A stretch of 64,000 nt of DNA from Bacteroidota bacterium (GTDB lineage: Bacteria; Bacteroidota; Bacteroidia; AKYH767-A; OLB10), in assembly GCA_016717725.1 (NCBI GenBank), contig JADKFA010000002.1, positions 78,226-142,225 on the forward strand. The letters run 5' to 3'. The notes beneath the pieces were generated by a model. That model made no database searches, was not told the origin of the DNA, and saw nothing but the letters and a program-made list of their open reading frames with translations. Of this stretch, positions 3,340 to 59,533 are shown piece after piece; positions within the stretch are counted from its first letter, which is position 1; each line of letters starts with the position of its first letter. The position numbers were made by a program, and so were the translations under genes.

Positions 3340-3412
3340 TTCACAATCCACCAATCCACCAATCCACCAATTTACCAACTCACCAATTTGCCAATCTGCC
3401 AATTCACTACTT
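3340..3412. repeat. short tandem repeat tract (CCACCAAT x3, then CCAAyTnnCCAA units) immediately upstream of rsmE
   Basis: AATCCACCAATCCACCAATCCACCAATTTACCAACTCACCAATTTGCCAATCTGCCAATTCAC. A related CCAACTTACCAATTTGCCAATTCC tract occurs at 13830-13860. Confidence 0.7.
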
Positions 3413-5094: not shown

Positions 5095-5226
5095 ATAGTA
5101 TCCAACATCCATTTTTTGAAAGTGATGGTCGTGGTCCTCCAACCATAGTTTAAGTAAGTTTTTTTATGCTGATGGTTTCGGCGTAATTCTCTCTTGTTTC
5201 TTATTTTCTTAATTAAATGGATCAGT

Positions 5227-7566
5227 ATGCATAGAATAATATGCTTGCTTTTATTATTCATTACGATGAATAGTAAAGCACAAACGAATTGTAATTATCG
5301 AATTTCTGGTAAGGTGATGGATGCTGAGTTAAAAGCACCTTTGCCTTTTGCCAAAGTGGAATTATTGTCTTTGGGTAAAACCTCTGTGTGCAATGAGAAT
5401 GGAGAGTTTGTTTTCGATGGATTATGTGCAGGCACGATTGTATTGAAATCGTATTATATCGGATTTGATACACTGATTCAATCCATCTCCCTTGAAAAAA
5501 ATATTGAAGTGAAGTTGTGGTTGATGCCTGCTGCAAAAGAATTGAAGCAAACAGAAATTGTCGCCGAGCATATCGAAGGAAAAAATACGCAACTAAAAGA
5601 TTCGGTTTCCCAAATTGAAATGCGAAAAAGCGCCGGACTAAGTTTGACTTCTTATTTGAAGAATGTAACAGGAGTGACTGGAATGTCTACCGGATCTTCC
5701 ATCGTGAAACCTGTTATCCATGGTATGCATAGCCAACGTGTGATCATTATGAACGCCGGTATTCGACAGGAAGGTCAGCAATGGGGTACCGAACATGCCC
5801 CCGAAATTGATCCCTATGTTGCTAATAAGCTTCAAGTGATTAAAGGTGTTTCTTCTATTCAGTATGGTGCGGATGCTATAGCAGGGGTGATTATTGTTGA
5901 ACCGCGCAAACTTCTACATGAACCCGGCATTCATGCTGAATTGAATTTGGCGGGATTTTCTAACGGCAGGCAAGGTGTCGTTTCTGGATTAGTGGAACAA
6001 CATCTTGGGAAATTTTACGATCTCTGTTGGCGATTGCAAGGAACACTAAAGAAATCGGGCAATGTGAATACGCCCGATGTGTATTTGGAAAATACTGGTT
6101 TTGAAGAGGTGAACTGGAGTGCGAGTTTAGGTTTAGAAAGAAAACGTTTCGGAGTAGAAACTTTCTTTAGTCAATTCAAAACGACTATCGGAATTTTTAG
6201 AGGTGCACATATTGGAAATGTGAGCGACCTTACACGAATAATTCAGTCGGGAGAAATCATAACGGATGATCGCTTTACCTATTCCATTTCAAATCCACGA
6301 CAAGAAATCTTGCATTATTTGTTTTCTACAAAAGCTTGGTGGACCATCACCAATGTTGGAAAGTTGAATTTGTTATATGGATATCAATACAACCAACGGG
6401 TAGAATACGATCGCTTCCGACCATTGAATGATTCCATAGCAGCTTTGAATCGCCCAGAGTTACAGTTGGAATTGTTTACACATACCGCAGATTTGAATTT
6501 GGAGACAAGATATTATAAGGGATTTACAGCGAATATGGGTTTATCAGGAATGATCCAAGATAACCAATACAGCGGTCTACGCTACTTTGTTCCGAACTAT
6601 CTATTTTATAACGGTGGTGCCTATGGGTTAGTGAAGTGGAAAAGAAATAGAGTAGAGGTAGAGTCCGGAATTCGATATGATCGAAAAACAGAATCAGTTT
6701 ATCGTAACATCAACAGTGAAGTAGTTCAAAATGATTATAAATTTAATACACTCGGTTGGTCAGCAGGAATTTTATTTAAGCAAGATTCTGTTTTTTCCTG
6801 GAGATTAAATTCAGGCAGAACCGAACGTACTCCCAGTATCAACGAGTGGTTCAGCAATGGACTCCATCATGGCGCAGCTAGTTTTGAAATTGGTGATACT
6901 ACACTAGGGATGGAAAGAGCCTGGAATATTAATGCTGTGATGAATATTCAAACGAAGCGTTTGGCGATGGAAGTAAATGTTTTTTACATGTATATTCAAG
7001 ATTATATTTATTTAGTGCCTAGCACTAAGTCAGTATTAACGGTGAATGGAGCTTTTCCATCTTATGCCTATCAACATGTGGATGCAGGGTTTAAAGGAAT
7101 TGATTTTTCGTTCAATTGGCAATGCAGTCCCCGACTCAATTTCATTTCTAAAAATAGTTTGGTGTATGCATGGAACTTTACCGCAAAACGCTATTTGGAG
7201 TTGATTCCACCACCTCAATTTGATCAGTTGTTGAGCTATCAGTTTAAGGACACCGAACATCGAAAAGAACAAAGTGTAGGAATATCAGTCTTGCATGTGA
7301 TGAAACAATTCCGTTTCGCGACGGAAAGTGATTTTATTCCACCACCCAAAGCTTATACATTAATTGGATTTGAAGCCACTTCAACATTTGTATTAAAACA
7401 CCAATCATTCATCGTGGGATTATCGGTGAACAATTTGTTGAATACAAAGTATCGTGATTACCTCAACCGCTTCCGTTATTATGCCGATGAGATGGGAAGA
7501 AATATTTCGGTGAAAATAAAAATTCCATTGTCATTTAAAACCGCAGAACATGCACATGAACATTGA
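5227..7566 (+). CDS. TonB-dependent outer-membrane receptor with N-terminal carboxypeptidase-regulatory-like domain
   Basis: The signal peptide MHRIICLLLLFITMNSKAQ makes ATG 5227 more likely than 5194. CarbopepD_reg-like ISGKVMDAE...PLPFAKVEL region, then plug and beta-barrel. The C-terminus is aromatic-rich. Confidence 0.85.
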   Translation: MHRIICLLLLFITMNSKAQTNCNYRISGKVMDAELKAPLPFAKVELLSLGKTSVCNENGEFVFDGLCAGTIVLKSYYIGFDTLIQSISLEKNIEVKLWLMPAAKELKQTEIVAEHIEGKNTQLKDSVSQIEMRKSAGLSLTSYLKNVTGVTGMSTGSSIVKPVIHGMHSQRVIIMNAGIRQEGQQWGTEHAPEIDPYVANKLQVIKGVSSIQYGADAIAGVIIVEPRKLLHEPGIHAELNLAGFSNGRQGVVSGLVEQHLGKFYDLCWRLQGTLKKSGNVNTPDVYLENTGFEEVNWSASLGLERKRFGVETFFSQFKTTIGIFRGAHIGNVSDLTRIIQSGEIITDDRFTYSISNPRQEILHYLFSTKAWWTITNVGKLNLLYGYQYNQRVEYDRFRPLNDSIAALNRPELQLELFTHTADLNLETRYYKGFTANMGLSGMIQDNQYSGLRYFVPNYLFYNGGAYGLVKWKRNRVEVESGIRYDRKTESVYRNINSEVVQNDYKFNTLGWSAGILFKQDSVFSWRLNSGRTERTPSINEWFSNGLHHGAASFEIGDTTLGMERAWNINAVMNIQTKRLAMEVNVFYMYIQDYIYLVPSTKSVLTVNGAFPSYAYQHVDAGFKGIDFSFNWQCSPRLNFISKNSLVYAWNFTAKRYLELIPPPQFDQLLSYQFKDTEHRKEQSVGISVLHVMKQFRFATESDFIPPPKAYTLIGFEATSTFVLKHQSFIVGLSVNNLLNTKYRDYLNRFRYYADEMGRNISVKIKIPLSFKTAEHAHEH

Positions 7567-7605
7567 GAAAATTATTTTATTTTACTATTGTCAAATCGTG
7601 TGTTT

Positions 7606-7808
7606 AGTATCCATTATCGAGTATCGAGTATCCAGTATCGAGTATCCAGTATCGAGTATCCAGTATCGAATATCCAGTATCGAGTATCGAATATCCAGTA
7701 TCGAGTATCCAGTATCGAGTGTCCAGTATCGAGTATCGAGTATCGAGTATCGAGTATCCAGTATCGAGTATCCAGTATCGAGTATCCAGTATCGAGTATC
7801 CAGTATCC
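7606..7808. repeat. heptanucleotide tandem array (AGTATCG/AGTATCC)n, about 29 units
   Basis: Directly visible: gagtatcgagtatccagtatcgagtatccag... with occasional AATATCC or GTGTCC variants. Begins 40 nt after the receptor stop codon. Confidence 0.95.
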
Positions 7809-7872
7809 AATCGCGAAGCCTCGCGACTAAAATCTAAAATCTAATCGCGAAGCCTCGCAACTAAAATCCAAA
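7809..7872. repeat. two copies of a 26-bp hairpin element AATCGCGAAGCCTCGCGACTAAAATC (REP-like)
   Basis: TCGCGA-AGCC-TCGCGA is a stem-loop. The same element recurs at 13667-13732 and 27992-28018. Confidence 0.85.
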
Positions 7873-7875
7873 ATC

Positions 7876-8436
7876 ATGAAAAACCTTAATACCATAAAAC
7901 TAATCGCATCAACAATTCTTCTCATCGGAACAATCAGCAGTTGTAAAAAGGATAAAACCAACGATCCGCAGCCTATTAATCAATCAGAGCTCATTACCAA
8001 GGTTCAATTGGTCTTTGTGGATTCTATTTCTGGTGCAGTAGCTTCTATTTCCACTTTTTCTGATGTAGATGGACCCGGAGGTGTTGCTACACAGGATTCG
8101 ATTCTGCTAAATAGTAATACCACTTATCTCATGAATTTAATTTTGTTGGACGAGACAAAATCTCCTGTTGATACGATCTCAAATGAAGTATTAAACGAAG
8201 GAGATGTCCATTTGTTTGTGTTTAATGCTAATCCTTCTGGTTTCCTAACAACAAATATTACGGATTTAGATGCAAATCTTAAACCTATTGGACTTTCATC
8301 CATCTTAAGAACTTCTGCAGCTGGAGTGGGGACGTATTCAGTAGAATTACGACATTTCACTTCCGAACAAGCGAAAGCAGATAATTTAGTATATGATACC
8401 GATATTTCAATATTATTTAATGTTCGGTTGCAATAA
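7876..8436 (+). CDS. hypothetical lipoprotein
   Basis: 186 aa. Lipoprotein signal LLIGTISSC. Sits downstream of the TonB-dependent receptor and could be a receptor-associated lipoprotein. Confidence 0.5.
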   Translation: MKNLNTIKLIASTILLIGTISSCKKDKTNDPQPINQSELITKVQLVFVDSISGAVASISTFSDVDGPGGVATQDSILLNSNTTYLMNLILLDETKSPVDTISNEVLNEGDVHLFVFNANPSGFLTTNITDLDANLKPIGLSSILRTSAAGVGTYSVELRHFTSEQAKADNLVYDTDISILFNVRLQ

Positions 8437-8483: not shown

Positions 8484-9702
8484 ATGATAAAACGAATTGT
8501 AATATTAATTCTACTGCTAACTCCATCCATTGGAAAATCTCAATCCATGTATTTTCCACCACTCCTCGGAAATACGTGGGATACACTTTCTCCTGCCTCT
8601 TTAGGATGGTGTGAGCCCCAAATAGATTCTTTGCTCGATTATTTAGAAGCTAAAAATTCGAAAGCATTTATTTTATTGAAGGATGGTAAGATTGTGATCG
8701 AAAAGTATTTCGGAACGTTTACGATGGATAGCGTTTGGTACTGGGCATCGGCAGGTAAAACGTTAACCGGTTTTACGATGGGAATTGCACAGCAAGAGGG
8801 ATTACTTTCTATTCAAGATACTACATCCGATTATTTAGGTAATGGCTGGACCGTTTGTCCACCATTAAAGGAGGAAAAAATTACAATTCGACATCAACTC
8901 ACCATGAGTTCTGGACTCGATGATGGTGTTCCTGATCATTATTGTACGCTTGATACTTGTTTGAAATACTTGGCCGATGCGGGTACGCGCTGGGCTTATC
9001 ATAACGGTCCCTATACTTTATTGGATAGTGTCATTGAATCAGCAACCGGGCAATCATTGAATAGTTATATCACGCAGAAAATAAAAATCCAACAGGAATG
9101 ACCGGTGCATTTTTTCCAAGTGGATACAATAATGTGTTCTTCAGTAAACCGAGAAGCATGGCACGATTTGGATTACTGATGTTGAATCAAGGGAATTGGA
9201 ATGGCAATCAAATTTTAACCGACACTAATTATTTTCAACAAATGGTGAATAGTTCGCAAACATTAAATCCTTCTTATGGTTATTTAACATGGCTCAATGG
9301 GAAATCATCATTTATGGTTCCTGGATTGCAGTTTAATTTTCCAGGTTCATTCAGTCCAAATGCGCCAAGTGATATGATTGCGGCACTCGGGAAGGATGGG
9401 CAAATCATCAACATAGTACCTTCACAAAATTTAGTTTATATCCGAATGGGAAATGCTCCCGGCGCTGGTGAGGTGCCTTTTACTTTCCTAATCCATTTCA
9501 AGAAGTAGTAACTATTCAGAACAAAACTCAAGGTAGAGTAGAAGTAATTCTGATGGATGTAACCGGAAAGAGAATGTTTTCTAAGTTCTTCAATGATGCA
9601 GAATTCAACTTGAATTTGAGCGATTTTTCAAATGGAATGTACCTAATAAAATTAAATTCAACTGATGGGAAATCGTTAGTAAAACGTATTGTTAAGAATT
9701 GA
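8484..9702 (+). CDS. beta-lactamase-family serine hydrolase fused to a T9SS type-A C-terminal sorting domain, interrupted by two frameshifts
   Basis: SxxK motif ASAGKT. ORF 8484..9101 continues in ORF 9098..9508 after a shift in the AAAATAAAAAT run at about 9080-9100. The Por-secretion tail (FPNPFQEVVTIQNK...GMYLIKLNSTDGKSLVKRIVKN*) is in a third frame, 9480-9702. Confidence 0.6.
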
Positions 9703-12237: not shown

Positions 12238-12306
12238 TAAATTCGTGATTTCGGAGATTCGTAATTCGTACATTCGTATCGATTCGTTCCCGATAGCTAT
12301 CGGGAT
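12238..12306. repeat. ATTCGT(A) short tandem repeats followed by an 18-bp perfect palindrome TCCCGATAGCTATCGGGA
   Basis: aaattcgtgatttcggagattcgtaattcgtacattcgtatcgattcgt, then tcccgatagctatcggga at 12288-12305. Confidence 0.8.
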
Positions 12307-12323
12307 CGTAACCTAAATAAATA

Positions 12324-13517
12324 TCAAATCCTCCCCAAACTCTTCCCTAAATACTCAAACTGCTCCATCGAATTATAAGCCTGCACAGAAATTCTCAATA
12401 ATAATTTTGGATTGTTTTTATCAAAGTAAAATACCGGAACCTGAATTTTATATTCATCCATCAGTCTCTGTTTTAACGGTGTGATCATATTGAAAAAATT
12501 GGATGGCGTTTCAGGATTATTTTGTACCGGAATACTCGCCAAATGTCCAATCATAGAATCAGGAGTAGGGATTTCAATATTCAATTTTTCGCAAATTAAT
12601 TTTCTGGCTACTAAACAAAGTTCTCGATTGTTTTTTCGTAACTCTTTCCAGGTACCAAAAATAGTTTCCATGTATCGTATGCTGTCTTTTAAGAGTAGAT
12701 ACGAGCTATAGTCGTCTGTGCCCGGCCATGTAAACTGGGCACTCCAATGCGCATCGGTACCTTCGTATAAATCGTTGTAATGTGAAATTTGTAAGGGACG
12801 AATTTTATGCTGCTTGTCTTTTCGAACATACATCAAAGCAGATCCTCGCGGACTACAAATCCATTTGTGACCATTGCCAATGTAGTAGCTGGCACCTAAA
12901 CTTTCAATATTTAAATCAATCATTCCAGGAGCATGCGCACCATCAATGAGTACTTCAATTCCTCTGGATTCTAACGCTTGTGTAAGTTTTTCAACAGGAA
13001 AAATAATTCCGGTTGCAGAAGTGATATGATCTAACAAAACAAATTTTGTTTTACTTGTAACTTGATTTAAAATTGCATTCGTTATTTCATCTTCACTCGA
13101 AATGGGAAATGGAATTTCGGCAACAACTAATTTGCATTTGTGTTTTTCGGCAAAGTATTTCAAAACATTTACACAAGCACCGTAGGCATGACTATGGGTT
13201 AGCAATTCATCTCCTGCTTCAAAGGAAAGAGAATTCAAAATGGTATTCGCTCCCGAAGTAGTATTTTTCATTAACACTAAATCATTCGCATTACAACCAA
13301 CAAATTGAGCTAAGGCATTTTTATTTTCAATATATCTCGCTTCAAAATCCGTTACCAATTCTTGGATAGGATCCAGCTCGGTGCGATGTTTTATTTGCGT
13401 TTGCAAATCAAGAATAGCCGTCGGACAAGATCCAAAGGAACCATGATTCAGAAAAACAATATTCTTATCGTGATTCCAATGTTTTTCATGGATAGAGTAG
13501 GGTGGAAGTGAAGTCAT
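12324..13517 (-). CDS. class V aminotransferase (isopenicillin-N epimerase / cysteine desulfurase-like, PLP-dependent)
   Basis: 397 aa. N-terminal LNHGSFGSCP and SATGIIFPV...IDGAHAPGMIDLN, with the IGNGHKW lysine region typical of aminotransferase class V. Confidence 0.8.
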   Translation of the reverse strand: MTSLPPYSIHEKHWNHDKNIVFLNHGSFGSCPTAILDLQTQIKHRTELDPIQELVTDFEARYIENKNALAQFVGCNANDLVLMKNTTSGANTILNSLSFEAGDELLTHSHAYGACVNVLKYFAEKHKCKLVVAEIPFPISSEDEITNAILNQVTSKTKFVLLDHITSATGIIFPVEKLTQALESRGIEVLIDGAHAPGMIDLNIESLGASYYIGNGHKWICSPRGSALMYVRKDKQHKIRPLQISHYNDLYEGTDAHWSAQFTWPGTDDYSSYLLLKDSIRYMETIFGTWKELRKNNRELCLVARKLICEKLNIEIPTPDSMIGHLASIPVQNNPETPSNFFNMITPLKQRLMDEYKIQVPVFYFDKNNPKLLLRISVQAYNSMEQFEYLGKSLGRI

Positions 13518-13659: not shown

Positions 13660-13862
13660 AATCCCTTATCGCGAAGCCTCGTGACACCATCCCGATAGCT
13701 ATCGGGACACCATCGCGAAGCCTCGCGACACAAACTCACCAGCATGTCAACTCATCAACTTACCAACATGCCAACTCACCATCCCGATAGCTATCGGGAC
13801 ACCAACTTGCCATCCCGATAGCTATCGGGACACCAACTTACCAATTTGCCAATTCCAGCATG
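13660..13862. repeat. composite repeat block: two copies of the ATCGCGAAGCCTCG(C/T)GACA hairpin, three copies of ATCCCGATAGCTATCGGGAC, and CAACTyACCAA units
   Basis: Palindrome copies at 13689-13708, 13781-13800 and 13812-13831. Hairpin elements at 13667-13686 and 13713-13732. Confidence 0.9.
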
Positions 13863-18407: not shown

Positions 18408-19838
18408 ATGAAACCACTAATTACAAAAATTATCATTCTGTTTACTATTTTACTTTCTTATTCGATTGAATCGGAAGCACAAGGGACTTATACCTCCCAA
18501 AATATTAATCTTCTTTCCGTTTGGGACAATCTAAATGTACCTGCAGAGCCAGGCTATGGCATCCGTTACAATGGAATATGGGGTTGGGATGACGGTTTAG
18601 GTCATGAATATGCACTTCTTGGTGCTACAAATGGAGTTTATTTCATTGATATTACGAATCCAGCTCTACCCGTGGAAGCGGATTTTGTGCCTGGCCAACG
18701 TGATTCATGCATCTGGAGAGAAATTAAAACATATGATCACTACGCCTACTTAGTTTCTGACGATGGAGCGCCCAATAGTTTTCAAATTGTGGATTTGCAA
18801 TATCTTCCTGATTCGGTAAGCGTTGTTTATGACGGTACTTCTATCTTCGAAAGATCACATACTATTTTCGTGGATGGAGATAAACTTTATACAGGTACTG
18901 TGAAAGGAGGGCAATTTTCAAGTACCGCTGCTCTAGCTGTTTTTAGTTTGACCAATCCCGTACAACCTACCTTGCTTAGAAAGTTAAATACCGATTACCC
19001 AAGTTTATTAAATAGTAATCAGGTGCATGATATGTATGTGCGTAACGATACGGTTTATGCTTCTTGTGGTTATGATGGATTATTCCTTTTTAAATATAAT
19101 ACAGTTGCAAATAATTTTACTTTGTCAGGATCCCTCACTACTTACCCATCTCAAGGTTATAATCATAGCAGCGCATTAACTGATGATGGGTCTACGTTGG
19201 TCTTTATGGATGAAGTTCCAAATGGCTTACCTGTTAAAGTGTTAGATGTAACTGATTTTTCTAATTTAACGATGAAATCTACTTTCAGTAGTAACGTGGG
19301 TCCCACTCCGCACAATCCCTTTATGGTAGGTACTACCTGTTACATCGCTTATTACCAAGATGGATTGCAAGTGTACGATGTAAGTATTCCTACTGCGCCA
19401 GTTCGTATAGGATATTTTGATACTCATAATCAAACTGCTTTCGGAGGTCCTTATCCATCTCCAGCTTATCAAGGCGCTTGGGGTGCTTATCCTTATTTTC
19501 CTAGTGGAAATGTAATTGTTTCCGATATGCAAAATGGGTTGTTTGTTTTGGATCCAAGTCCGATGTTTACTTCTATTAATGAAATTAATAATTCGAATTC
19601 CTTCTCTCTTTTTCCAAATCCATCTGCAGAAAATCAATTGGTAACTATAACATTAAATCAAACTCCAGCAGAGAATGTTCGACTAGAATTAACCGATCTT
19701 CAAGGTAAAGTAATAATGTCTGATTTGAAATCTGGCAAGAGCTTTAATTTTTCTACCAAGGGTATGTCAACTGGTTTATATTTTGTTTCCATTATTTCGA
19801 ATGATGGTCGCATCGTAAAAAAATTGATTGTTCAATAA
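18408..19838 (+). CDS. secreted beta-propeller protein (LVIVD / choice-of-anchor-B-like) with T9SS type-A C-terminal sorting domain
   Basis: Signal peptide, repeated propeller-like blocks, and C-terminal FSLFPNPSAENQLVTI...GLYFVSIISNDGRIVKKLIVQ. Confidence 0.6.
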   Translation: MKPLITKIIILFTILLSYSIESEAQGTYTSQNINLLSVWDNLNVPAEPGYGIRYNGIWGWDDGLGHEYALLGATNGVYFIDITNPALPVEADFVPGQRDSCIWREIKTYDHYAYLVSDDGAPNSFQIVDLQYLPDSVSVVYDGTSIFERSHTIFVDGDKLYTGTVKGGQFSSTAALAVFSLTNPVQPTLLRKLNTDYPSLLNSNQVHDMYVRNDTVYASCGYDGLFLFKYNTVANNFTLSGSLTTYPSQGYNHSSALTDDGSTLVFMDEVPNGLPVKVLDVTDFSNLTMKSTFSSNVGPTPHNPFMVGTTCYIAYYQDGLQVYDVSIPTAPVRIGYFDTHNQTAFGGPYPSPAYQGAWGAYPYFPSGNVIVSDMQNGLFVLDPSPMFTSINEINNSNSFSLFPNPSAENQLVTITLNQTPAENVRLELTDLQGKVIMSDLKSGKSFNFSTKGMSTGLYFVSIISNDGRIVKKLIVQ

Positions 19839-19955
19839 TAAAATAGCCTACGGTTTCAATCGTAGGTTATTGGTTTCATTGTATCGAATGATGGTCGTAT
19901 TGTAAAAAAATCGATTGTTCAATAATAAAATAATAGCCTACAGTTTCAACCGTAG
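19787..19955. repeat. about 80-bp tandem duplication of gene 3' end plus terminator hairpin (two copies, about 90% identical)
   Basis: Copy 1: tcgaatgatggtcgcatcgtaaaaaaattgattgttcaataataaaatagcctacggtttcaatcgtaggtt. Copy 2: tcgaatgatggtcgtattgtaaaaaaatcgattgttcaataataaaataatagcctacagtttcaaccgtaggct plus a T-run. Each copy ends in an AGCCTACxGTTTCAAxCGTAGG hairpin. Confidence 0.85.
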
Positions 19956-19956
19956 G

Positions 19957-20367
19957 CTATTTGTTTTTTTGGGAAGTCAACCTTACTAGTGCCTCCACAT
20001 CCCCAGGAGCAATTTTATATTTTTTCGTTTCCCATTCATTGATCCAAACTATTTCATCATGGTCTGTTAAAACCATCTTGCCGCTATCGATAAGAGCTCG
20101 AAAGAAGGTGAAATCTATAGTTTGATCATGATCACGATATTGATATTGAAAACAGAATTGAATGTCCTTTAATTCTAAATTTAATTCCTCTTTTATTTCT
20201 CTTTCAAGAGCGACAAATTCATCTTCCCCTGCTTCTACTTTTCCTCCTGGGAATTCCCAGTATCCAGCTAATGGCTTCCCCGCTTTTTTGCGTGCCATCA
20301 GGAATCGATTATCTTCATTATAGATAATGACGGCAACAACTTTGACTATAGTAGACATATTTATCAA
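19957..20367 (-). CDS. NUDIX hydrolase, MutT-like (deoxy)nucleoside triphosphate pyrophosphohydrolase
   Basis: Nudix box GGKVEAGEDEFVALEREIKEELNLEL. Confidence 0.8.
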   Translation of the reverse strand: MINMSTIVKVVAVIIYNEDNRFLMARKKAGKPLAGYWEFPGGKVEAGEDEFVALEREIKEELNLELKDIQFCFQYQYRDHDQTIDFTFFRALIDSGKMVLTDHDEIVWINEWETKKYKIAPGDVEALVRLTSQKNK

Positions 20368-27947: not shown

Positions 27948-28018
27948 GTTAGATGTTGGATATTAGATAGAACATCCAACATCCAACATCTAATCGCGAA
28001 GCCTCGAGACTAAAATCT
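27948..28018. repeat. inverted repeat hairpin (GATGTTGGAT / ATCCAACATC) with CATCCAA heptamer x3, followed by a 26-bp AATCGCGAAGCCTCGAGACTAAAATC element
   Basis: Directly visible. The 26-bp element abuts the dnaK stop codon. Confidence 0.8.
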
Positions 28019-29923
28019 ATTTCTCCTTCACTTCTTCAAAATCAACATCCGTAACATTATCGGTTGCTGATGCGGTAGGTTCACCTTCTTGGGTTTGTTG
28101 TCCATCGGGAGCGCCTGCTTCTTGAGAAGCATTGTAAAGATCCTTAGATGCTGCTTCCCATGCTGCATTTAATTCTGTGGTTGCTATTTCAATGGTTGGC
28201 CAATCTTTTTGCTGATGTGCTTCCTTTAATTTTGTAAGAGCAGCTTCGATGGTTGCTTTTTTGTCAGCCGGAATTTTTTCTCCAAACTCCTTTAATTGTT
28301 TTTCTGTATTGAAGATTAAAGAATCAGCTTGATTGATTTTATCTACTTCTTCTTTTGCCTTGCGATCGCTTTCGGCATTGGCTTCTGCTTCGCGTTTCAT
28401 TCGTTGAATTTCTTCTTCGTTTAATCCGAAGAAGCTTCGATACGGATGTTTTGTGATTTACCGCTTGCTTTGTCTTTCGCAGTTACATGTAGAATTCCAT
28501 TCGCATCAATATCAAATGTAACTTCGATTTGTGGTATGCCGCGTGGAGCAGGAGGGAAGCCATCTAAGTGAAACCTACCGATGGTGCGATTGTCTTTCGA
28601 CATCGGACGCTCTCCTTGCAACACGTGAATCTCTACAGATGGCTGGTTGTCTGAGGCGGTAGAGAAAATTTCAGATTTACGAGTAGGAATAGTGGTGTTC
28701 GACTCAATTAGTTTAGTCATTACTCCGCCCATAGTTTCAATTCCCAATGAAAGAGGAGTAACATCTAATAACAATACGTCTTTCACTTCTCCGGTTAATA
28801 CTGCACCTTGAATGGCAGCTCCAACAGCAACTACTTCATCTGGGTTTACACCCTTGGAAGGTTTCTTTCCGAAAAATTTCTCAACTAATTCTTGGATTGC
28901 AGGAATTCGGCTTGATCCACCTACTAAAATAACTTCATTGATATCATTTGACGTCAACTTCGCATCTGCTAGTGCTTTTTTACAAGGCTCAAGTGTGCGT
29001 TGGATTAATTTATCCGCTAACTGTTCAAACTTCGCACGTGTTAATGTTTTTACTAGATGTTTTGGTATTCCATCAACTGGCATAATGTATGGAAGATTGA
29101 TTTCCGTTTGTGTTGAACTGGATAATTCAATCTTTGCTTTTTCAGCAGCTTCTTTTAAACGCTGTAAAGCCATAGGGTCTTTTCTTAAGTCGATACCTTC
29201 ATCGCTCTTGAACTCATCCGCCATCCAATCAATAATTACTTGGTCGAAATCATCACCACCTAAGTGAGTATCTCCGTTAGTTGATTTAACTTCAAACACT
29301 CCATCTCCTAATTCAAGAATGGAAATATCAAATGTTCCACCACCTAAATCGAATACTGCAATTTTATTGTCGTTATGATTTTTATCTAAACCATAAGCTA
29401 ATGCTGCAGCTGTAGGCTCATTGATGATACGTAAAACTTTTAATCCTGCAACTTCACCCGCTTCTTTCGTTGCTTGACGCTGTGCATCGTTAAAATAGGC
29501 AGGTACAGTAATTACTGCTTCACTTACTTCATATCCTAAATAATCTTCAGCGGTCTTCTTCATTTTTTGAAGAACCATCGCAGAAATTTCTTGCGCAGTA
29601 TATAAACGATCGTTGATTTTTACTCGTGGAGTATTGTTGTCTCCTTTTACGACCTCATAAGGTACTCTTGAAATTTCCAATGAAACTTTATCAAAAGATT
29701 CACCCATAAATCGCTTGATAGATGAAATAGTATGAGTTGGATTCGTGATCGCTTGTCTTTTGGCTGGGTCACCCACTTTACGCTCTCCATCTTTAATAAA
29801 TGCAACAATGGAAGGCGTTGTTCTGCGTCCTTCACTATTTGGTATCACCACTGGCTCATTCCCTTCCATCACTGCCACACAAGAGTTCGTGGTACCAAGG
29901 TCAATTCCTATTACTTTTTTCAT
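28017..29923 (-). CDS. dnaK: molecular chaperone DnaK (Hsp70), interrupted by a 1-nt frameshift at about 28410
   Basis: N-terminal ORF 28421..29923 ([22 protein letters not shown]). C-terminal ORF 28017..28400. The junction reads ...IEASSD* in one frame and [15 protein letters not shown] in the other. Confidence 0.92.
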
Positions 29924-42269: not shown

Positions 42270-42767
42270 TTTGTTTATATTTATTGTTAGATTTTTTAAT
42301 TCAGCTCTATAGGTAAAAAGATTTATGAATGCATGTAAATGCATTTTACATAAAGTATTTTCTTCAGTAACATGTAAATTTGTTTTGTTATAACTAGTTC
42401 TAGATTTTGCTGGAATTTCCGGATACACAGCAAAAACAAATATATGACTTCTTATGACAATTGCAAGCATTTTTTTGATTATGTTAATTTCGTTTTGCAA
42501 GTAAGTATTCCCATTTTTTTACAATTGCTTGGTTTTCACAGATTCGAATTTACATTTGATTCCATTTATTTTATCAACTGTTTGGTGAATAGTTAAAAAG
42601 AATAGGTGAAAATGTGTAAGGTTCTTGGATCTTTATTAAAAAAGTGAAGTTTTTTCTTGACTTGTATAGGTTTAATGTAATATCTTGCATGGTTAAGTTA
42701 CTTGCTTTCCAATCTTTCAAGTGCCAATTTTACACTCCCATCATTCAATTATTATCTAAATCAGCTT

Positions 42768-45700
42768 ATGAAAGCAAAGCTATTATCAGTAAATTATGTA
42801 TTATCAATTCTAAGTTTTTTGATGTTTTTTTTCAATGGATTTTCATTTGTCAATGCTCAAGAAAATAGAGTGTATTGGCAAACGATTCCTAAGTCTAGTT
42901 TAATTAATTTAAATAGCAGGTATGCACTCCCAGAAAAGTTTGTCACTTTGCAATGTAATACAAACTTAATTCGACAACAATTAAGTGTTGCTCCTATGGA
43001 GTTTACTTCGGGTGCGTTAAACTCAACTGTTACTTTTAAGATACACATGCCTGATGGTAATATTCTTTCTTTTAAGATGGTAGAATCGATGGTGATGGAT
43101 CCTGTATTAGCAACCCAATTTCCATCCATAAAAACGTATTCAGGACAAGGCATCGAAGAAAGAGATGCTATTTTAAAAGTAAGCATAAGCCCAATTGGAT
43201 TTCATGCTATGATTTTGTCTCCTAAAGGAAATGTTTTTATTGATCCATTGGAGCCCGGGAATACTAATGATTATATAGTATATTTTAGAAATGATTTTAA
43301 AGAATATCGTTCGTTTAATTGTGAGTTGGATAGTTTGCCAATTAATAAAAGTAGATCTTATCAGCAAATTGCAACCGGTCAAGCAAATAAAACACATGGT
43401 ACCCAATTAAGAAATTATCGTTTAGCACTTGCTTGTACAGGTGAATATGCGGCCTATTATGGAGGTACTACATCGGGTGCTATGGCCGGTATGGTTGCTA
43501 CAATGAATCGTGTAAACGGAATTTATGAATCAGAAGTGTCAGTTCGAATGACAATGGTTGCAAACAATAATTTATTGATCTATACAAATGCAAGCACAGA
43601 TCCATTTACGAATACAAATGGTTCTACTATGCTTGGACAAAATATTACGAATTGTAATACCGTCATTGGAAGTGCAAATTATGATATTGGTCATGTTTTT
43701 AGTACCGGTGGAGGTGGAGTTGCTTATTTAGGTGTTCCATGTACTTCGAATAAGGCAGGTGGCGTAACAGGTTCTGGAAGCCCCGTAGGTGATGCTTTTG
43801 ATGTGGATTATGTGGCACACGAAATGGGACATCAATTTGGAGGGAGCCATACTTTTAATGCGACAACAAGTTCTTGTGGTGGAGGTAATAGAAGTGCTTC
43901 AGCAGCTTATGAACCCGGAAGCGGAATTACTATTATGGCATATGCTGGAATTTGTGGTGCTACCAATAATTTGGCCCCAAATAGTATTGCGTATTTTCAT
44001 ACGCATAGCTTCGATCAAATTACTAATTATATCACAACTGGAAGTGGAAATACATGTCCAACAACAACCGCTACAGGGAATACGCCTCCAACTGTTACTC
44101 CAGATGGTTTAAATTATTATATACCTTATTTAACTCCGTTTTCGTTAAATGCAACAGGTTCGGATCCTAACGGTGATGCATTGACGTATTCATGGGAAGA
44201 ATATGATTTGGGTGCAGCTGGGAATTGGAATGCACCCGTAGGCGATGCTCCCATTTTCCGTCCATTTCCTCCCACAAGTACTGGAACTCGTATTTTTCCA
44301 AAAATTTCGGATATCGTAAATAATGCTACAACGATTGGAGAAATTCTACCTAGCTACGCACGCGTATTAAAGTTTAAAGTAACCGCTCGTGATAATAGAG
44401 TAAATGGTGGAGGTGTGAATAGAATTGATGCAAATGTTTTAGTAAATGTCATCAATACAGGTGCTGCGTTCACAGTTACTGCACCTAATACTGCAGTTAC
44501 TTGGGCTACGGGTGCAACGGCAAATGTGACGTGGAATGTATCATCAACAAATATTGCTCCCATCTCCTGTGCTAATGTGAATATTTTATTGTCTACAGAT
44601 GGAGGATATACTTATCCGATAACTCTGCTATCAAATACACCAAATGACGGAAGTGAAAATATTACTGTTCCTGGAAATGTTACTTCTACCGCACGTGTGA
44701 AAGTGGAAGGTGCCGGAAATATCTTTTTTGATATTTCAAATGTAAATTTTAATATTATTGCAGGCGGTGGTGTTTTAACAACAATTTCTACCGATCCTAT
44801 TAGTCCTTTAAATTTATGCCCTGGACAAGCTCTCACCGTTGGATTTGCGGGCAATGGAAATGCAAACGCAGGGAATGTTTATACAGCGCAATTATCTTCG
44901 TCCATAGGTTCGTTTGCAAGTCCAACTAATATTGGAACATTAAGTAGTACCTCCTCTAGTGGAAGTATTTCTTGCATAATTCCAGGAGGAAGTATTGCAG
45001 GTACTGCTTATCGAATTCGAGTTGTTTCTTCTCTCCCCTCTGTGGTGGGTTTGGATAATGGAGCTAATTTAATAATGATTGGAACCCTAGGAGCAACCGG
45101 AACAATTTCTGGTCCGTCTAGCGTTTGTCAAGGACAGAACGGTGTGGTTTATTCAACAACGGCGGTTTCAAATGCATCCAGTTATGCTTGGTCTTTGCCT
45201 ATTGGATTTACCATCACATCAGGATCAGGAACGAATAGTATAACAGTAAGCATAGCCGCAAATGCATCTTCTGGTTCAATTTCAGTAACTCCTTCGAATA
45301 TTTGTACTACGGGTTCTACTTCTAATGCCTATTCCGTTTCCGTTTCTCCACTTCCTTCTACAGCAGGAGTACTATCTGGCATTACCAGTGTATGTCAAGG
45401 TGATCAAAATATCATTTATTCTGTTCCTTCCATATTATTTGCTACAAGTTATTCGTGGAGTTTACCTGTTGGGTTTTCTATCGTTGGAACTCCTACAAAT
45501 AGCATCACGGTTAATGTTGCTCCTGGAGCAGCTTCTGGAACGATATCAGTTTACGGGGTTAATTCATGCGGAAATGGTGGTCCTTCATCTCTAGCTATTG
45601 CGGTGAACTCTGCTCCAAGCGCTGCTATTCTATCAGCGGGTGGACCTCTTACAGTTTGTTCTCCTAATACGGTTTCAATGTCATTCTCTCCTTCTGTTGG

Positions 45701-46910
45701 GGTAGATTATCAGTGGAGATTAAATGGAATTGATTTGTCTGGCGAAACAGCTTCTTCCTATGTTGCCACACAAACTGGTAATTATGATGTGGTGTCGAAT
45801 TTCGCCGCAGTTGGAAGCCAACAATTTTCTACTGCAGTTCCTGCTGTAATACCAGATAATAGTTGTACAGGTGTAGCAAGTCCTATTATTGTAAGCGGAT
45901 ACACGTCATCGATTCCTACATCAAGCATATATGTTCAATTGAATTTAACGCATACTTATGTTGGAGATTTGGATATATTTCTCGAAAGTTCATCAGGAGA
46001 AAGATTAGGACTTAGCGATCAAACTGGGAATGCCGGTAATGGTGGTGTTAATTTTATAAATACAGTTTTTGCAGATTCGGGAGCTACAATTCTGCCTACA
46101 ACGGGTGCTCCTTATTCAGACTTATATAAACCATGGAACGCCATTTTTACAGTGAATTCATGTGCATTAACAACTACGCATACAAGCTTTGCTTCATTGG
46201 GGGGAGGTAGTTTAAATCCGAATGGAACTTGGCATTTGAAAGTGTACGATAGAGCAGGCGTCGATACAGGGAGAGTAGTGAATTGGTCTATTTATTTTCC
46301 TGGAGTGAGTGGCTCGTGTTCGTCTGTTTCAAATGTGCTTTCGGTGGATGTTATTTCACCTATTACGTTTACTTCCTTTAATCCAAGTAGTGGAAATGTT
46401 GGAAATGCGATTTCTTTAGTAGGAACTCAAATGAATACTTTAACAAGTGTTTTATTTAATGGTGTAAACGCAGCATTTGTAGTAGTTAGTAATACTGAAT
46501 TATCAGCTACTGTTCCTGCTGGAGCAACTTCAGGTGTTATCACATTGGTAGGGCCTTGTAATTCGATGAATTCAAGTAGTTCGTTTACTGTAAATACAGG
46601 AAGCTCAAATTTAAATTTATATGTAGCAATAGAAGGATTTTATATCGGTGGTGGAAACATGATTGGAGTCATATCGTCATCAGTAAGCGATACCGTAACT
46701 GTTCAACTTAGAAATACATCATCGCCATATAGCGTTGCGTATACTACAACTGTTACTTTGAACGTGAATGGTCAAGCCTCTATCATTATTCCTGCTCCTT
46801 ATAGTGGAAATTCGTATTATATTGCTGTAAAGCATCGTAACTCCCTCGAAACATGGAGTAAGTTTCCTGTGTTGATGTCGCCCGTTGTAAATTTCACGTT
46901 TAAGAATTAA
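42768..46910 (+). CDS. secreted zinc metalloprotease (metzincin, reprolysin/M12B-like, HExxHxxGxxH) with proprotein-convertase P-domain and multiple Ig-like/IPT domains
   Basis: Probable start MKAKLLSVNYVL... (signal peptide). Zinc motif HEMGHQFGGSH at about 43818-43852. P-domain-like region GDLDIFLESSSGERLGL...GTWHLKVYDRAGVDTGRVVNWSIYF at about 45900-46300. Confidence 0.7.
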   Translation: MKAKLLSVNYVLSILSFLMFFFNGFSFVNAQENRVYWQTIPKSSLINLNSRYALPEKFVTLQCNTNLIRQQLSVAPMEFTSGALNSTVTFKIHMPDGNILSFKMVESMVMDPVLATQFPSIKTYSGQGIEERDAILKVSISPIGFHAMILSPKGNVFIDPLEPGNTNDYIVYFRNDFKEYRSFNCELDSLPINKSRSYQQIATGQANKTHGTQLRNYRLALACTGEYAAYYGGTTSGAMAGMVATMNRVNGIYESEVSVRMTMVANNNLLIYTNASTDPFTNTNGSTMLGQNITNCNTVIGSANYDIGHVFSTGGGGVAYLGVPCTSNKAGGVTGSGSPVGDAFDVDYVAHEMGHQFGGSHTFNATTSSCGGGNRSASAAYEPGSGITIMAYAGICGATNNLAPNSIAYFHTHSFDQITNYITTGSGNTCPTTTATGNTPPTVTPDGLNYYIPYLTPFSLNATGSDPNGDALTYSWEEYDLGAAGNWNAPVGDAPIFRPFPPTSTGTRIFPKISDIVNNATTIGEILPSYARVLKFKVTARDNRVNGGGVNRIDANVLVNVINTGAAFTVTAPNTAVTWATGATANVTWNVSSTNIAPISCANVNILLSTDGGYTYPITLLSNTPNDGSENITVPGNVTSTARVKVEGAGNIFFDISNVNFNIIAGGGVLTTISTDPISPLNLCPGQALTVGFAGNGNANAGNVYTAQLSSSIGSFASPTNIGTLSSTSSSGSISCIIPGGSIAGTAYRIRVVSSLPSVVGLDNGANLIMIGTLGATGTISGPSSVCQGQNGVVYSTTAVSNASSYAWSLPIGFTITSGSGTNSITVSIAANASSGSISVTPSNICTTGSTSNAYSVSVSPLPSTAGVLSGITSVCQGDQNIIYSVPSILFATSYSWSLPVGFSIVGTPTNSITVNVAPGAASGTISVYGVNSCGNGGPSSLAIAVNSAPSAAILSAGGPLTVCSPNTVSMSFSPSVGVDYQWRLNGIDLSGETASSYVATQTGNYDVVSNFAAVGSQQFSTAVPAVIPDNSCTGVASPIIVSGYTSSIPTSSIYVQLNLTHTYVGDLDIFLESSSGERLGLSDQTGNAGNGGVNFINTVFADSGATILPTTGAPYSDLYKPWNAIFTVNSCALTTTHTSFASLGGGSLNPNGTWHLKVYDRAGVDTGRVVNWSIYFPGVSGSCSSVSNVLSVDVISPITFTSFNPSSGNVGNAISLVGTQMNTLTSVLFNGVNAAFVVVSNTELSATVPAGATSGVITLVGPCNSMNSSSSFTVNTGSSNLNLYVAIEGFYIGGGNMIGVISSSVSDTVTVQLRNTSSPYSVAYTTTVTLNVNGQASIIIPAPYSGNSYYIAVKHRNSLETWSKFPVLMSPVVNFTFKN

Positions 46911-46982
46911 TTGTGAATTGTGAATTGTGAATGGTGAATCAGGATTTAATTCTTAATTCTTAATTCTTAATTCTTAATTAAA
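46911..46982. repeat. two adjacent heptamer tandem arrays: (TGTGAAT)x4 then (AATTCTT)x5
   Basis: ttgtgaattgtgaattgtgaatggtgaatcaggatttaattcttaattcttaattcttaattcttaatt. Lies between convergent genes. Confidence 0.9.
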
Positions 46983-47696
46983 TCAATCTTCCTTCATATT
47001 GTGAAAAACATTCTGCACATCATCATCTTCTTCTAGTCTGTCCAATAAATTTTGTAAATCTTTTTGTTGGTCAGCGTTGAGTTCGGTAACTGTAGTTGGA
47101 ATTCGATCAAGTTCTGCACTGATGATGGTGATTTTTTTCTCCTCCAATGCTTTTTGCATTTTGCCGTAATCCGTAAATGAAGTGGTCACGTAAATTCCAT
47201 CTTCTCCCTCTTCTAATTCTTCGGCTCCGAAATCGATCAATTCAAATTCGAGTTCTTCAATATTTGATTTTCCTTTTTCAATGCAGAATATCCCTTTGCG
47301 ATCGAATAGAAAATCTAAGGACCCCGTTTTCCCCATAGCCCCATTGCAGCGATTAAAATGCATGCGAATGTTTGCAACGGTTCTTGTATTATTATCGGTA
47401 GCAGCTTCTACTACTACGGCGATCCCATGCGGACCATAGCCTTCAAATACTACTTCTTCTAAAACTTTCTCGTCTTTGTGTGCCGCTCGTTGAATGGCAG
47501 CTTCTACGCGATCCTTAGGCATGTTTAATGCCTTGGAATTTTGTATAACCATTCGCAAACGAGGATTGCCATCAGGATGTGGTCCACCTAGTTTTACGGC
47601 AATGGCAATTTCTTTTCCTATTCTGGTAAAAGCTTTAGAAGCTTTTGCATTGTTTGCAAACATTTTATGTTTGCGTTTTTCAAATGCACGTCCCAT
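46983..47696 (-). CDS. yebC: YebC/PmpR-family DNA-binding transcriptional regulator
   Basis: 237 aa. N-terminus MGRAFEKRKHKMFANNAKASKAFTRIGKEI is typical of YebC. Confidence 0.9.
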   Translation of the reverse strand: MGRAFEKRKHKMFANNAKASKAFTRIGKEIAIAVKLGGPHPDGNPRLRMVIQNSKALNMPKDRVEAAIQRAAHKDEKVLEEVVFEGYGPHGIAVVVEAATDNNTRTVANIRMHFNRCNGAMGKTGSLDFLFDRKGIFCIEKGKSNIEELEFELIDFGAEELEEGEDGIYVTTSFTDYGKMQKALEEKKITIISAELDRIPTTVTELNADQQKDLQNLLDRLEEDDDVQNVFHNMKED

Positions 47697-57026: not shown

Positions 57027-59333
57027 TTGATATTCATGAAGAATTTTATTTTGATTTTATACGTTTTGACGTATTTCGCAGCATCTTCCCGTGCCCAAGT
57101 CCCTACCCAAATTATTCGTGGAGTCGTAGTAGATGAAATCACACAAGCTACTTTGCCGGGTGCAACGGTAGTCATTGCAGATTTGGATCCAGTCATGGGC
57201 GTAAACGCAGATGTGAATGGAGTCTTTCGTTTGGACAAGGTCCCCGTTGGATATCATACAATCAAAGTAGTGATGATGGGGTATGAAGATTTTGTTCGGC
57301 CCAATGTGCTGTTAAATTCTGGAAAGGAGTTGGTCTTAACGTTATCCTTACGCGAGAAATTAGTTCAAGTAAAGGAAGTGACGATCACTGCCGAATTGGA
57401 AAAGCAAAAGGCCATCAATGAAATGTCGTTGGTGAGTACTCGAACCTTTTCAGTAGAAGAAACTCAAAAATTTGCAGCTGCCGTCAATGATCCCGCTCGG
57501 ATGGTAAGCTCCTTTGCTGGTGTTTTAAGCACCGATGATGGTAATAATAATGTTTCTATTCGTGGTAACTCTCCTAACGGGCTTCAGTGGCGCATGGAAG
57601 GTGTGGAAATTCCCAGTCCCAATCATTACGCTTTTCCAGGTACTGCAGGTGGTGGAATATCGATTTTAAGTTCACAGTTATTATTCAATTCTGATTTTTT
57701 AACTGGCGCTTTTACTGCTGAATATGGAAATGCATTGAGTGGTGTGTTTGATTTAAAGTTGAGAAAAGGAAATAATGAAAATAGAGAGTTTACTTTTTAA
57801 TCGAGTTTTTTGGGACTTGATGTCGCTGCTGAAGGACCCTTTAGTAAAAAATACAATGGCTCTTATTTAATAAATTATCGATACAGTACATTGGCCGCCA
57901 TTGGGAAGATTATTGATTTAGGGGATGCAGCAACTAACTTTCAAGATTTATCATTTAATATTTATTTACCTACGAATAAGTTCGGTCAGTTTACCATTTT
58001 TGGATTTGGTGGATTAAGTAGTCAAGATTTTGATGCAGAAACTGATTCATCAAAATGGGAAGAAGATTTTGATCGTTATTCAAGTGATTTTATTTCAAAT
58101 ACTGGAGCTATTGGTGCAACGCACAGTATTACGCTCAATAAAAAATTGTTCCTTAGAACGGCAGTGGTAAGTTCTAAGTTTGAGAATAAATATCGTGAGA
58201 AAAGGTTAAATGATTTTTATGAATTTGAGAGCCGTGATAATGCAAAAACAATGAACGACCGTTATTTGTTTTCTACTAATTTGAATTATAAAATTAATAC
58301 TCGTAATTCTCTGAAATCTGGAATTGTTTTATCAAAGCTCAACTATTCAATCTATCAAAATAGTTTTAATACGGATGTCGATAGTATGATAAACTATTTA
58401 GATATAAAAAACACAACACAAACGATCCAATTGTATTCGACATGGATGAATCGAGTTACTGAAAGATGGACTTTGCAATTTGGAGTACATTATCTCGCAC
58501 TAGCTTTGAATAATACATTCTCCATTGAACCTCGGGCATCTTCTAGTTTCGAAATTTCAGAGGGGAAGAGTTTGTCTGTGGGTTATGGATTACATAGCCA
58601 AATTCAAACACTGGGAGTTTATTTTGCAGAAGCAATAGATAGCATGGGAAATATTTATCGTCCCAATGAAGATTTAGAGCTGACAAAGTCTCATCATTTT
58701 GTTGTTGGATATGATCACATGTTGCAACCTTGGTTGCATTTTAAAATTGAAGCGTATTATCAGCATTTGTTTGATGTGCCTATCAGCGTTGATACAACGA
58801 ATACATTCAGCGTTTTGAATTTGCGCGATGGCTATTATACATATCCACTTACTAATGACGGGTTGGGGCGAAATTATGGAGTTGAATTAACGGTAGAGCA
58901 GTTTATGCATCATGATCTTTATTTTTTATTCTCTTCTTCCATTTATGAATCTGAATACAAAGCGAACGATGGAAAATGGAGAAATACGTTGTTCAACGGA
59001 AACTACACATTTACTTTTACAGGCGGAAAGGAGATTAAAACAGGTAGTAAGTTTAAGAATAGAATTATTGGTTTGAATGTTAAAATGATTTATGCTGGTG
59101 GATTGCGAACTACACCCATCGATCTGGAAAAATCAATTGCTGAACAAAGTACTTATTATTTCGAGAAGCAAGCTTTCTCTGGACAGAATCCAGCTTATTT
59201 TAGAACCGATATTCGGATCAGCATGAAACGTAATCGACCAAAGGCAACGCATATTCTTTCTTTAGACATCCAAAATGTTACGAGCAGAAAAAATGTGTAT
59301 GGAGATTTTTTGATGCGAAATCTGGTAAAGTGA
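57027..59333 (+). CDS. outer-membrane beta-barrel receptor (CarbopepD_reg domain plus TonB-dependent-receptor-like barrel) with an in-frame TAA at 57798-57800
   Basis: ORF 57027..57800 (signal peptide, IRGVVVDEITQATLPGATVVI) and ORF 57810..59333 are in the same frame, separated by a single stop codon. Aromatic-rich barrel strands to the C-terminus. Confidence 0.65.
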
Positions 59334-59437
59334 AATCGTATTATCAAACACCTTTGATTCCTATACTCGGTTATCGAATTGAGTTTTGAAGATCTCTTAA
59401 GTATAGCTACAAGCTACAAGAATTGAGTATAGAATAT

Positions 59438-59530
59438 CGAGTATCGAATGTCAAGTATCAAGTATCAAGTATCAAGTATCAAGTATCAAGTATAAAGTAT
59501 CGAGTATCGAGTATCGAGTATCGAGCATCC
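59438..59530. repeat. heptanucleotide tandem array (AGTATCG/AGTATCA)n, about 13 units
   Basis: atcgagtatcgaatgtcaagtatcaagtatcaagtatcaagtatcaagtataaagtatcgagtatcgagtatcgagtatcgag. Same unit and orientation as the 7606-7808 array. Confidence 0.95.
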
Positions 59531-59533
59531 TTA

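Follow-up and report, generated by a model that had tools for sequence, protein, structure and literature searches.

Why should a tandem array of 29 heptanucleotides separate the gene of a TonB-dependent receptor from that of a lipoprotein-like protein in the genome of an uncultured environmental member of the Bacteroidia, and does the array do anything there? An earlier note, made from the sequence alone, had proposed a variable-number tandem repeat (VNTR) associated with outer-membrane receptor genes, possibly with a role in transcription. Here we examine the array within the 64,000 nt of DNA that surround it (the window), at the same site in related genomes, and in its wider distribution.

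Sequence and setting of the array

The array (array 1) occupies positions 7606-7808 of the plus strand and consists of 29 head-to-tail heptamers in register. Cut in this register, they comprise 15 AGTATCG, 10 AGTATCC, 2 AATATCC, 1 ATTATCG and 1 AGTGTCC. TRF delimits it at 7606-7807, with a period of 14, 14.4 copies, 93% matches and a score of 306; a period of 21 scores equally. Searching the window with the 14-mer AGTATCSAGTATCS and allowing up to two mismatches gave 41 matches, against 0.91 expected from shuffled sequence. The AGTATCG/AGTATCC tandem of about 200 bp that had been described here is thus borne out, by the 29 in-register units as by the TRF score. The alternation of G and C at the last base, from which a super-period of 14 nt had been deduced, is real but not strict: four AGTATCG units follow one another at one point, and a 21-nt block (AGTATCG AATATCC AGTATCG) is duplicated, with both AATATCC copies of the array falling within it. 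In the 3' half, the last twelve units (7725-7808) carry no substitution in the AGTATC core. Such a pattern, combining a 21-nt duplication, a run of identical units and a flawless 3' half, is the product expected of stepwise gain of one to three units.

Both main units are free of stop codons in every frame of both strands, and the ORFs 7550-7837 and 7588-7830 consist almost wholly of array 1. The 7-aa peptide period (SIEYRVS) formerly attributed to such translations holds in the homogeneous stretches, and becomes 14 aa where G and C alternate. These overlapping ORFs had been called artefacts, and rightly so: the receptor stop codon is placed identically in relatives that have no array. Array 1 is non-coding.

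The receptor gene (receptor gene 1, 5194-7566, plus strand), which encodes CarboxypepD_reg, Plug and barrel domains, stops 39 nt short of array 1. On the other side lie two copies of a 34-nt module (7809-7875, plus strand; TRF period 34), each made of a palindrome, H1 (AATCGCGAAGCCTCGCGAC), followed by A-rich heptamers, TAAAATC or CAAAATC, that extend to the ATG at 7876. This ATG, 67 nt 3' of array 1, opens an ORF of 186 aa (7876-8436, plus strand) with a lipoprotein-type signal peptide and without a family match, which is syntenic with the receptor gene in all relatives. A promoter scan near array 1 with a consensus restricted to sigma-70-type promoters returned matches at background level, and no promoter of the Bacteroidetes type was identified by eye near the array. 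Farther downstream, the beta-lactamase-fold gene (8484-9508) is split into ORFs of 205 and 136 aa, by a frameshift or an assembly error; relatives have a single protein of 415-435 aa with a Por secretion tail.

The orthologous gap in related genomes

Orthologs of receptor gene 1 with 81-92% identity were found in uncultured Bacteroidia, in a conserved order that is common to the relatives: methyltransferase, DUF4159, a small ORF, receptor, lipoprotein and beta-lactamase fold. One metagenome scan contributed one close relative (L129) and 39 distant ones. No exact protein match is on record for the lipoprotein or for the dehydrogenase discussed below. The gap between receptor and lipoprotein genes measures 309 nt in the window and about 25-80 nt in relatives, and its content differs sharply among them. 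In the closest relative (L121, 92% receptor identity) it is 25 nt long and free of repeats, and in L123 (84%) it is 79 nt long and contains no array. L129, also with 84% identity, has (AGTATCG)2(AGTATCC)3, amounting to 5.4 AGTATCS units. The gap of L124 (81%) holds the seed ATATCCATTATCGAAT, followed by (AGCTACA)n, four NATCGAG units and (AAAATCT)13.6, and in L122 (83%) the sequence (AACATCC)4 stands immediately before the ATG. Counted as AGTATCS-type units, the orthologous gap therefore holds 0, 0, about 4 and 5.4 copies among relatives, against 29 in the window.

These sharp differences mark array 1 as a VNTR rather than a conserved element. The VNTR behaviour that had been suggested from the array itself is thus seen, at the level of related lineages, in copy numbers of 0, about 4, 5.4 and 29 at the orthologous site. 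By comparison of these gaps, the AGTATCS unit appears to be ancestral, at this site, to part of the clade, and the expansion to 29 units is found only in the lineage of the window, while other heptamers are expanded at the same gap in L122 and L124.

We consider it likely that array 1 is a lineage-specific expansion, by slippage or unequal exchange, of a pre-existing seed in a weakly constrained gap, probably co-transcribed with its neighbours and without a conserved sequence-specific function. According to this proposal, a short seed, TATCCAT TATCGAG, would have been present in the common ancestor of the lineage and its relatives, and would have grown to 29 units in repeated steps of one to three units. 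The amplification would have proceeded via replication slippage or unequal exchange of misaligned copies, point variants being copied along with their neighbours, and the array would persist because constraint on that part of the spacer is weak. Its main effect would be a longer spacer between receptor and lipoprotein genes, and a hot spot for further change in length. We infer slippage as the generating process, near-neutrality, and transcription in a bicistronic or 5'-leader RNA.

Short-period arrays in the window and in other genomes

Expansion by slippage alone, acting independently at each locus, does not predict that an AGTATCN unit should occur twice within 64 kb, at sites 52 kb apart. 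The second array of the family, reported earlier as lying 3' of another receptor gene on the same strand, is indeed present. This array (array 2, 59405-59530, plus strand) begins with 2.3 copies of AGCTACA and continues with 16 AGTATCN-family units (in register 59419-59530), among them blocks of five AGTATCA and four AGTATCG; TRF delimits it at 59425-59529, with 15 copies. It fills most of the convergent gap between receptor gene 2 (57027-59388, plus strand) and a dihydrolipoyl-dehydrogenase-like gene on the minus strand (59534-60922); 3 nt separate the array from the stop codon of the latter. Relatives have a full-length receptor gene 2 of 784 aa. Two lesions interrupt it in the window, an in-frame TAA at 57798-57800 (CAA in L125) and the loss of 1 nt from a run of T near 59306; the alignment of the gene with a relative is otherwise 87% identical, with a single gap. 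The gene is likely a pseudogene, although the 1-nt deletion could be a homopolymer sequencing error. As receptors 1 and 2 share no significant BLASTP similarity, and hence are not close paralogs, descent of both arrays from one duplicated receptor gene with its flank was ruled out.

In four relatives (75-91% identity), the convergent gap at locus 2 is about 400 nt long and free of heptamer arrays (L125 3155-3550; L128 5148-5546; L127 12338-12686), and contains a bidirectional hairpin terminator, GGGAG..CTCCC with A/T-run flanks, 19-20 nt past the dehydrogenase stop codon. The corresponding gap of the window (59389-59533, 145 nt) consists mostly of heptamers; it has no detectable similarity to the spacer of the relatives, and the terminator is missing.

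Several other short-period arrays and two dispersed palindromes occur in the window. The palindrome H1 (ATCGCGAAGCCTCGCGAC; a 6-bp stem with the loop AGCC) has five plus-strand copies, at 7809-7827, 7843-7861, 13667-13685, 13711-13729 and 27992-28010. Outside the window its occurrence is limited to the closest relatives, where it stands at different loci (L121 287-305; L125 and L126 3407-3425). H2 (TCCCGATAGCTATCGGGA), a perfect palindrome, has four identical copies, at 12288-12305, 13690-13707, 13782-13799 and 13813-13830, two of which belong to a tandem unit of 31 nt; L121 has a near copy (258-278) 5' of its methyltransferase gene. A second module of heptamers ending in ATCC or ATCT, H1 and TAAAATCTA is found at 27971-28019 (plus strand), with 2.9 copies of AACATCC; over 46 nt, it is 85% identical to the one beside array 1 (27974-28019 versus 7791-7836).

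Octamer arrays of the form CAAYYYRC (CAATCCAC, CAATTTAC, CAACTCAC and others) lie at 3344-3404 and 13733-13854, and reach to about 10-20 nt from the start codons of two genes; in the gap orthologous to an octamer-array gap, L122 has a different octamer (TCCCCATC) and L124 has 3.9 copies of GATACTC. The convergent gap 46909-46979, between the genes 42702-46910 (plus strand) and 46983-47696 (minus strand), consists wholly of 4.4 copies of AATTGTG followed by 4.9 copies of TTAATTC, which could form a long hairpin, each unit being almost the reverse complement of the other (pairing at 6 of 7 positions, G-U included). An 87-nt unit is repeated in tandem at 19785-19966 (2.0 copies, 86% matches), from the 3' end of the ORF 18408-19838 through the adjacent convergent gap.

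In enterobacteria, the REP/BIME elements are small dispersed palindromes with short linkers, located after genes and between the genes of operons. The palindromes and linkers of the window resemble them; judged by dispersed palindromes and linker motifs, H1, H2 and the 46-nt module are REP/BIME-like, but the tandem array itself is not, since a long heptamer array has no counterpart in BIMEs. Array 1 could accordingly be read as part of a dispersed mosaic, in which H1 and H2 were copied between gaps together with heptamer and octamer linkers, so that the same unit came to stand at two loci. The five copies of H1, against 0.01 expected in the window, always beside short-period arrays, speak for this reading, as do the four identical copies of H2, the repeated 46-nt module and the restriction of H1 to the closest relatives at other loci. 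So does the composite of AGCTACAAGCTACAAG followed by NATCGAG units, shared by locus 2 of the window and locus 1 of L124. At these two places (59405-59420 and 12413-12478, respectively) AGCTACA units precede NATCGAG-type units and an exact 16-mer is common to both; the junction occurs in none of the other 123 loci compared. Repeat alignments are ambiguous, however, and those of array 2 with the composite array of L124 leave homology ambiguous. Moreover, the seed of array 1 is found at the orthologous site in relatives, which indicates growth in place rather than insertion, and no transposase or target-site signature was identified in the 64-kb window, the ORFs of which are partly annotated. 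Copying of this kind explains the spread of the unit and not its 29-fold expansion, for which slippage is still required; concerned with movement between loci rather than growth, it overlaps in part with the explanation that we favour. As an account of array 1 we regard it as a real though unlikely alternative. The more extensive proposal, that heptamer and octamer arrays, H1 and H2 constitute one mosaic intergenic family, copied between gaps and able to overwrite spacers, including the terminator spacer at locus 2, appears rather unlikely. If it were true, long arrays would be expandable arms of a mobile or recombinogenic element instead of independent products of slippage, and they might assume the role of the sequences replaced, such as the definition of transcript 3' ends.

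We then considered the unit in other genomes, by searching a collection of species-representative genomes for three consecutive AGTATCN units. The search yielded at least 120 loci in many phyla, with hosts that include Bacteroidota, Planctomycetota, Chloroflexota, Patescibacteria and Desulfobacterota. Among the matches listed, the arrays are mostly intergenic on a simple ORF map and frequently begin less than 10 nt from a stop codon; the distance to the 3' end of the gene facing them is at most 8 nt in 28 of 86. The 85 genes whose 3' ends face an array, among the matches listed, match 143 Pfam families. Only two of the 25 most frequent families were matched twice, and the barrel domain of TonB-dependent receptors is not in these 25. 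The association with outer-membrane receptor genes suggested by the two arrays of the window thus finds no support: there is no enrichment of TonB-dependent receptors among the 143 families, and the two receptors of the window are not close paralogs. Across genomes the unit is scattered without regard to outer-membrane genes, one of the patterns that the earlier note had named as evidence against its proposal.

Carrier genomes contain many heptamer units besides this one. In about 0.9 Mb around AGTATCN arrays, TRF reported 279 arrays with a period of 7, 158 of them built from other units; periods of 8, 9 and 6 accounted for 32, 16 and 5 arrays, respectively. Searches with the same core at other periods gave 32 stretches for period 8, over 16 possible units, and at least 120 for period 6, a count confounded by in-frame coding repeats. 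We discarded the idea that AGTATCN is a specially widespread heptamer, for in viral contigs three consecutive units occur in 39 stretches, and four composition-matched heptamers in 33, 65, 46 and 30; one control, ACTTGAN, partly overlaps the AGTATCN family on the opposite strand (6 loci in common).

Two further observations are not accounted for by slippage as we have proposed it. In the carrier genomes, 106 arrays stand apart from those of AGTATCN, and 22 of them differ from the unit by at most one mismatch, about 7.5% being expected; independent slippage does not predict this enrichment of near variants. The arrays also have a strand bias, which slippage leaves unexplained: among the matches listed, 51 of 71 arrays read NGATACT in the sense direction of the closest gene upstream, against 20 in the other orientation (p = 3e-4). 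Relative to their receptor genes, the two arrays of the window belong to this minority. The bias hints at a constraint linked to transcription or replication.

Possible roles and the known class of heptamer repeats

A surface-exposed lipoprotein is the type of gene usually under the control of contingency loci. Array 1 might, by analogy, be a tunable element of this kind, its copy number setting the expression of the lipoprotein from a leader or intercistronic RNA. The separation of receptor and lipoprotein genes by only 25 nt in the closest relative makes co-transcription plausible, heptamers reach the ATG directly in four of the five relatives, and copy number differs greatly between lineages. 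A heptamer repeat that acts in a 5'UTR is known, too: in Haemophilus influenzae hmw1A and hmw2A, the repeat (ATCTTTC)n pairs with a complementary G-rich region to give a hairpin for RNase III, a role that was shown experimentally (PMC12721329). Like array 1, that repeat has a 7-nt unit, varies in copy number and lies upstream of a gene for a surface protein. However, the hmw mechanism depends on the complementary partner, and array 1 has neither partner nor structure: no runs of SGATACT that could pair with it were found nearby, and no significant structure was found in the array folded as RNA, on either strand, or as DNA (z = -1.8 for the latter). The lipoprotein gene evidently does not need an array, as two close relatives are array-free, and similar arrays adjoin 143 unrelated gene families, mostly at 3' ends, among the matches listed. 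The host, an uncultured environmental bacterium, is not a host-adapted pathogen. We think regulation of the lipoprotein by copy number distinctly unlikely.

The array might instead act as a substitute terminator or an insulator, for instance by loading Rho, 3' of the receptor gene at locus 1 and of both convergent genes at locus 2. In favour of this reading, array 2 sits where four relatives have their terminator spacer, and may be a functional replacement of it; of the roughly ten convergent gaps in the window, at least four contain arrays of 7-8 nt, and the arrays of other genomes often abut stop codons. The sequence itself argues otherwise. Array 1 has no hairpin and no T tract; neither 7606-7808 nor 59419-59530 contains a terminator-like site (a GC-rich stem-loop with a T run), and there are no Rfam matches across the whole window. 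Folded as sense-strand RNA, the 309-nt gap gave z = -0.9 against shuffles, and the sole strong hairpin, formed by the two H1 modules, lies on the minus strand, which carries no gene there. Rho utilisation (rut) sites are C-rich and G-poor. Array 1 is unlike them, as its G and C contents are equal (43 and 42 of 203 nt), though its RNA is unstructured, and the sense-strand reading in the majority of other genomes is GGATACT, with more G than C. At locus 1, further, one would not expect termination in the ancestral gap, which is short and operon-like, and at locus 2 the disruption of receptor gene 2 means that loss of the terminator may be simple decay. The RNA z score, the want of a terminator-like site in the array and its base composition thus lend no support to the suggested terminator, insulator or structured 3'UTR element, and the reading as terminator or insulator is highly improbable. 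We also dropped a candidate GGA motif of the CsrA type in the complementary strand, which is antisense to both neighbours; its match to the known high-affinity ligand is imperfect.

The ribbon-helix-helix omega repressor of plasmid pSM19035 reads 7-10 contiguous WATCACW heptads. Array 1 likewise consists of contiguous heptads, with TATC in common with WATCACW and with every third unit presumably on the same helix face (21 nt being two helical turns), and could by analogy be a site for a similar heptad-reading protein or for a nucleoid protein, but such a role is hardly credible here, given that TATCSAG fits the heptad at positions 1-4 and not at 5-7, that no ribbon-helix-helix or partition gene is nearby (the neighbours being receptor, lipoprotein and beta-lactamase fold), that carrier genomes have many different heptamer units, that composition-matched heptamers are equally common, and that the array is absent from close relatives.

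Expansion of a seed by slippage, by contrast, places array 1 among repeats that are already known in bacteria. Among the long simple-sequence repeats of many prokaryotic genomes, heptamers form the most abundant class, and it has been proposed that 7 nt is the segment of DNA held by the polymerase, which would favour slippage (Mrazek, Guo and Shah 2007, as summarised in PMC4679880 and PMC4692102). Described cases include the STRR heptamers of cyanobacteria; for the class, polymerase slippage is the proposed origin, and no function is known. Array 1 shares with the long simple-sequence repeats, STRR among them, its intergenic position, a length beyond chance, the favoured period of 7 and the presence of many units per genome. 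It differs in that AGTATCS and its Bacteroidia host are not described in these two papers, and in that 29 copies are at the long end of the range.

Two described families come particularly close. The GGGAATC repeats of Xanthomonas and the GGGGAYT repeats of Nostoc lie between the same gene pairs in related genomes, highly variable in length and sequence, and are found in all types of intergenic gap, at times as inverted pairs (PMC4692102); these units are G-rich and capable of forming G-quadruplexes, whereas AGTATCS has no G runs and no predicted structure. Repeats of TAACTGA, known from Beggiatoaceae, Cyanobacteria and several Flavobacteriia, form arrays of up to 43 copies in the latter, mixed with other heptamers in one gap; they are missing from the same gap in close relatives, and contigs often break there (PMC4679880). 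In Beggiatoaceae, the TAACTGA arrays are mostly short and located just 5' of start codons in forward orientation, unlike array 1, which is long and ends 67 nt from the ATG; at locus 1 only A-rich AAAATCY units abut the start codon. Experimentally supported roles of heptamer repeats are special cases, such as hmw1A.

With a length far beyond chance, an intergenic position, and a copy number and unit that vary among relatives, array 1 has, as far as comparison of sequences can tell, the features of a heptanucleotide long simple-sequence repeat. As a bacterial microsatellite it is unremarkable, quick to evolve and of a kind described before; AGTATCS adds one more unit and one more lineage to the known class of bacterial heptamer microsatellites. 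In practical terms, array 1 flags two spurious ORFs, and arrays of this kind mark loci where short-read assemblies break and copy number is unreliable. The series of 0, about 4, 5 and 29 units at the orthologous site could be used to test the effect of such arrays on the expression of the downstream gene.
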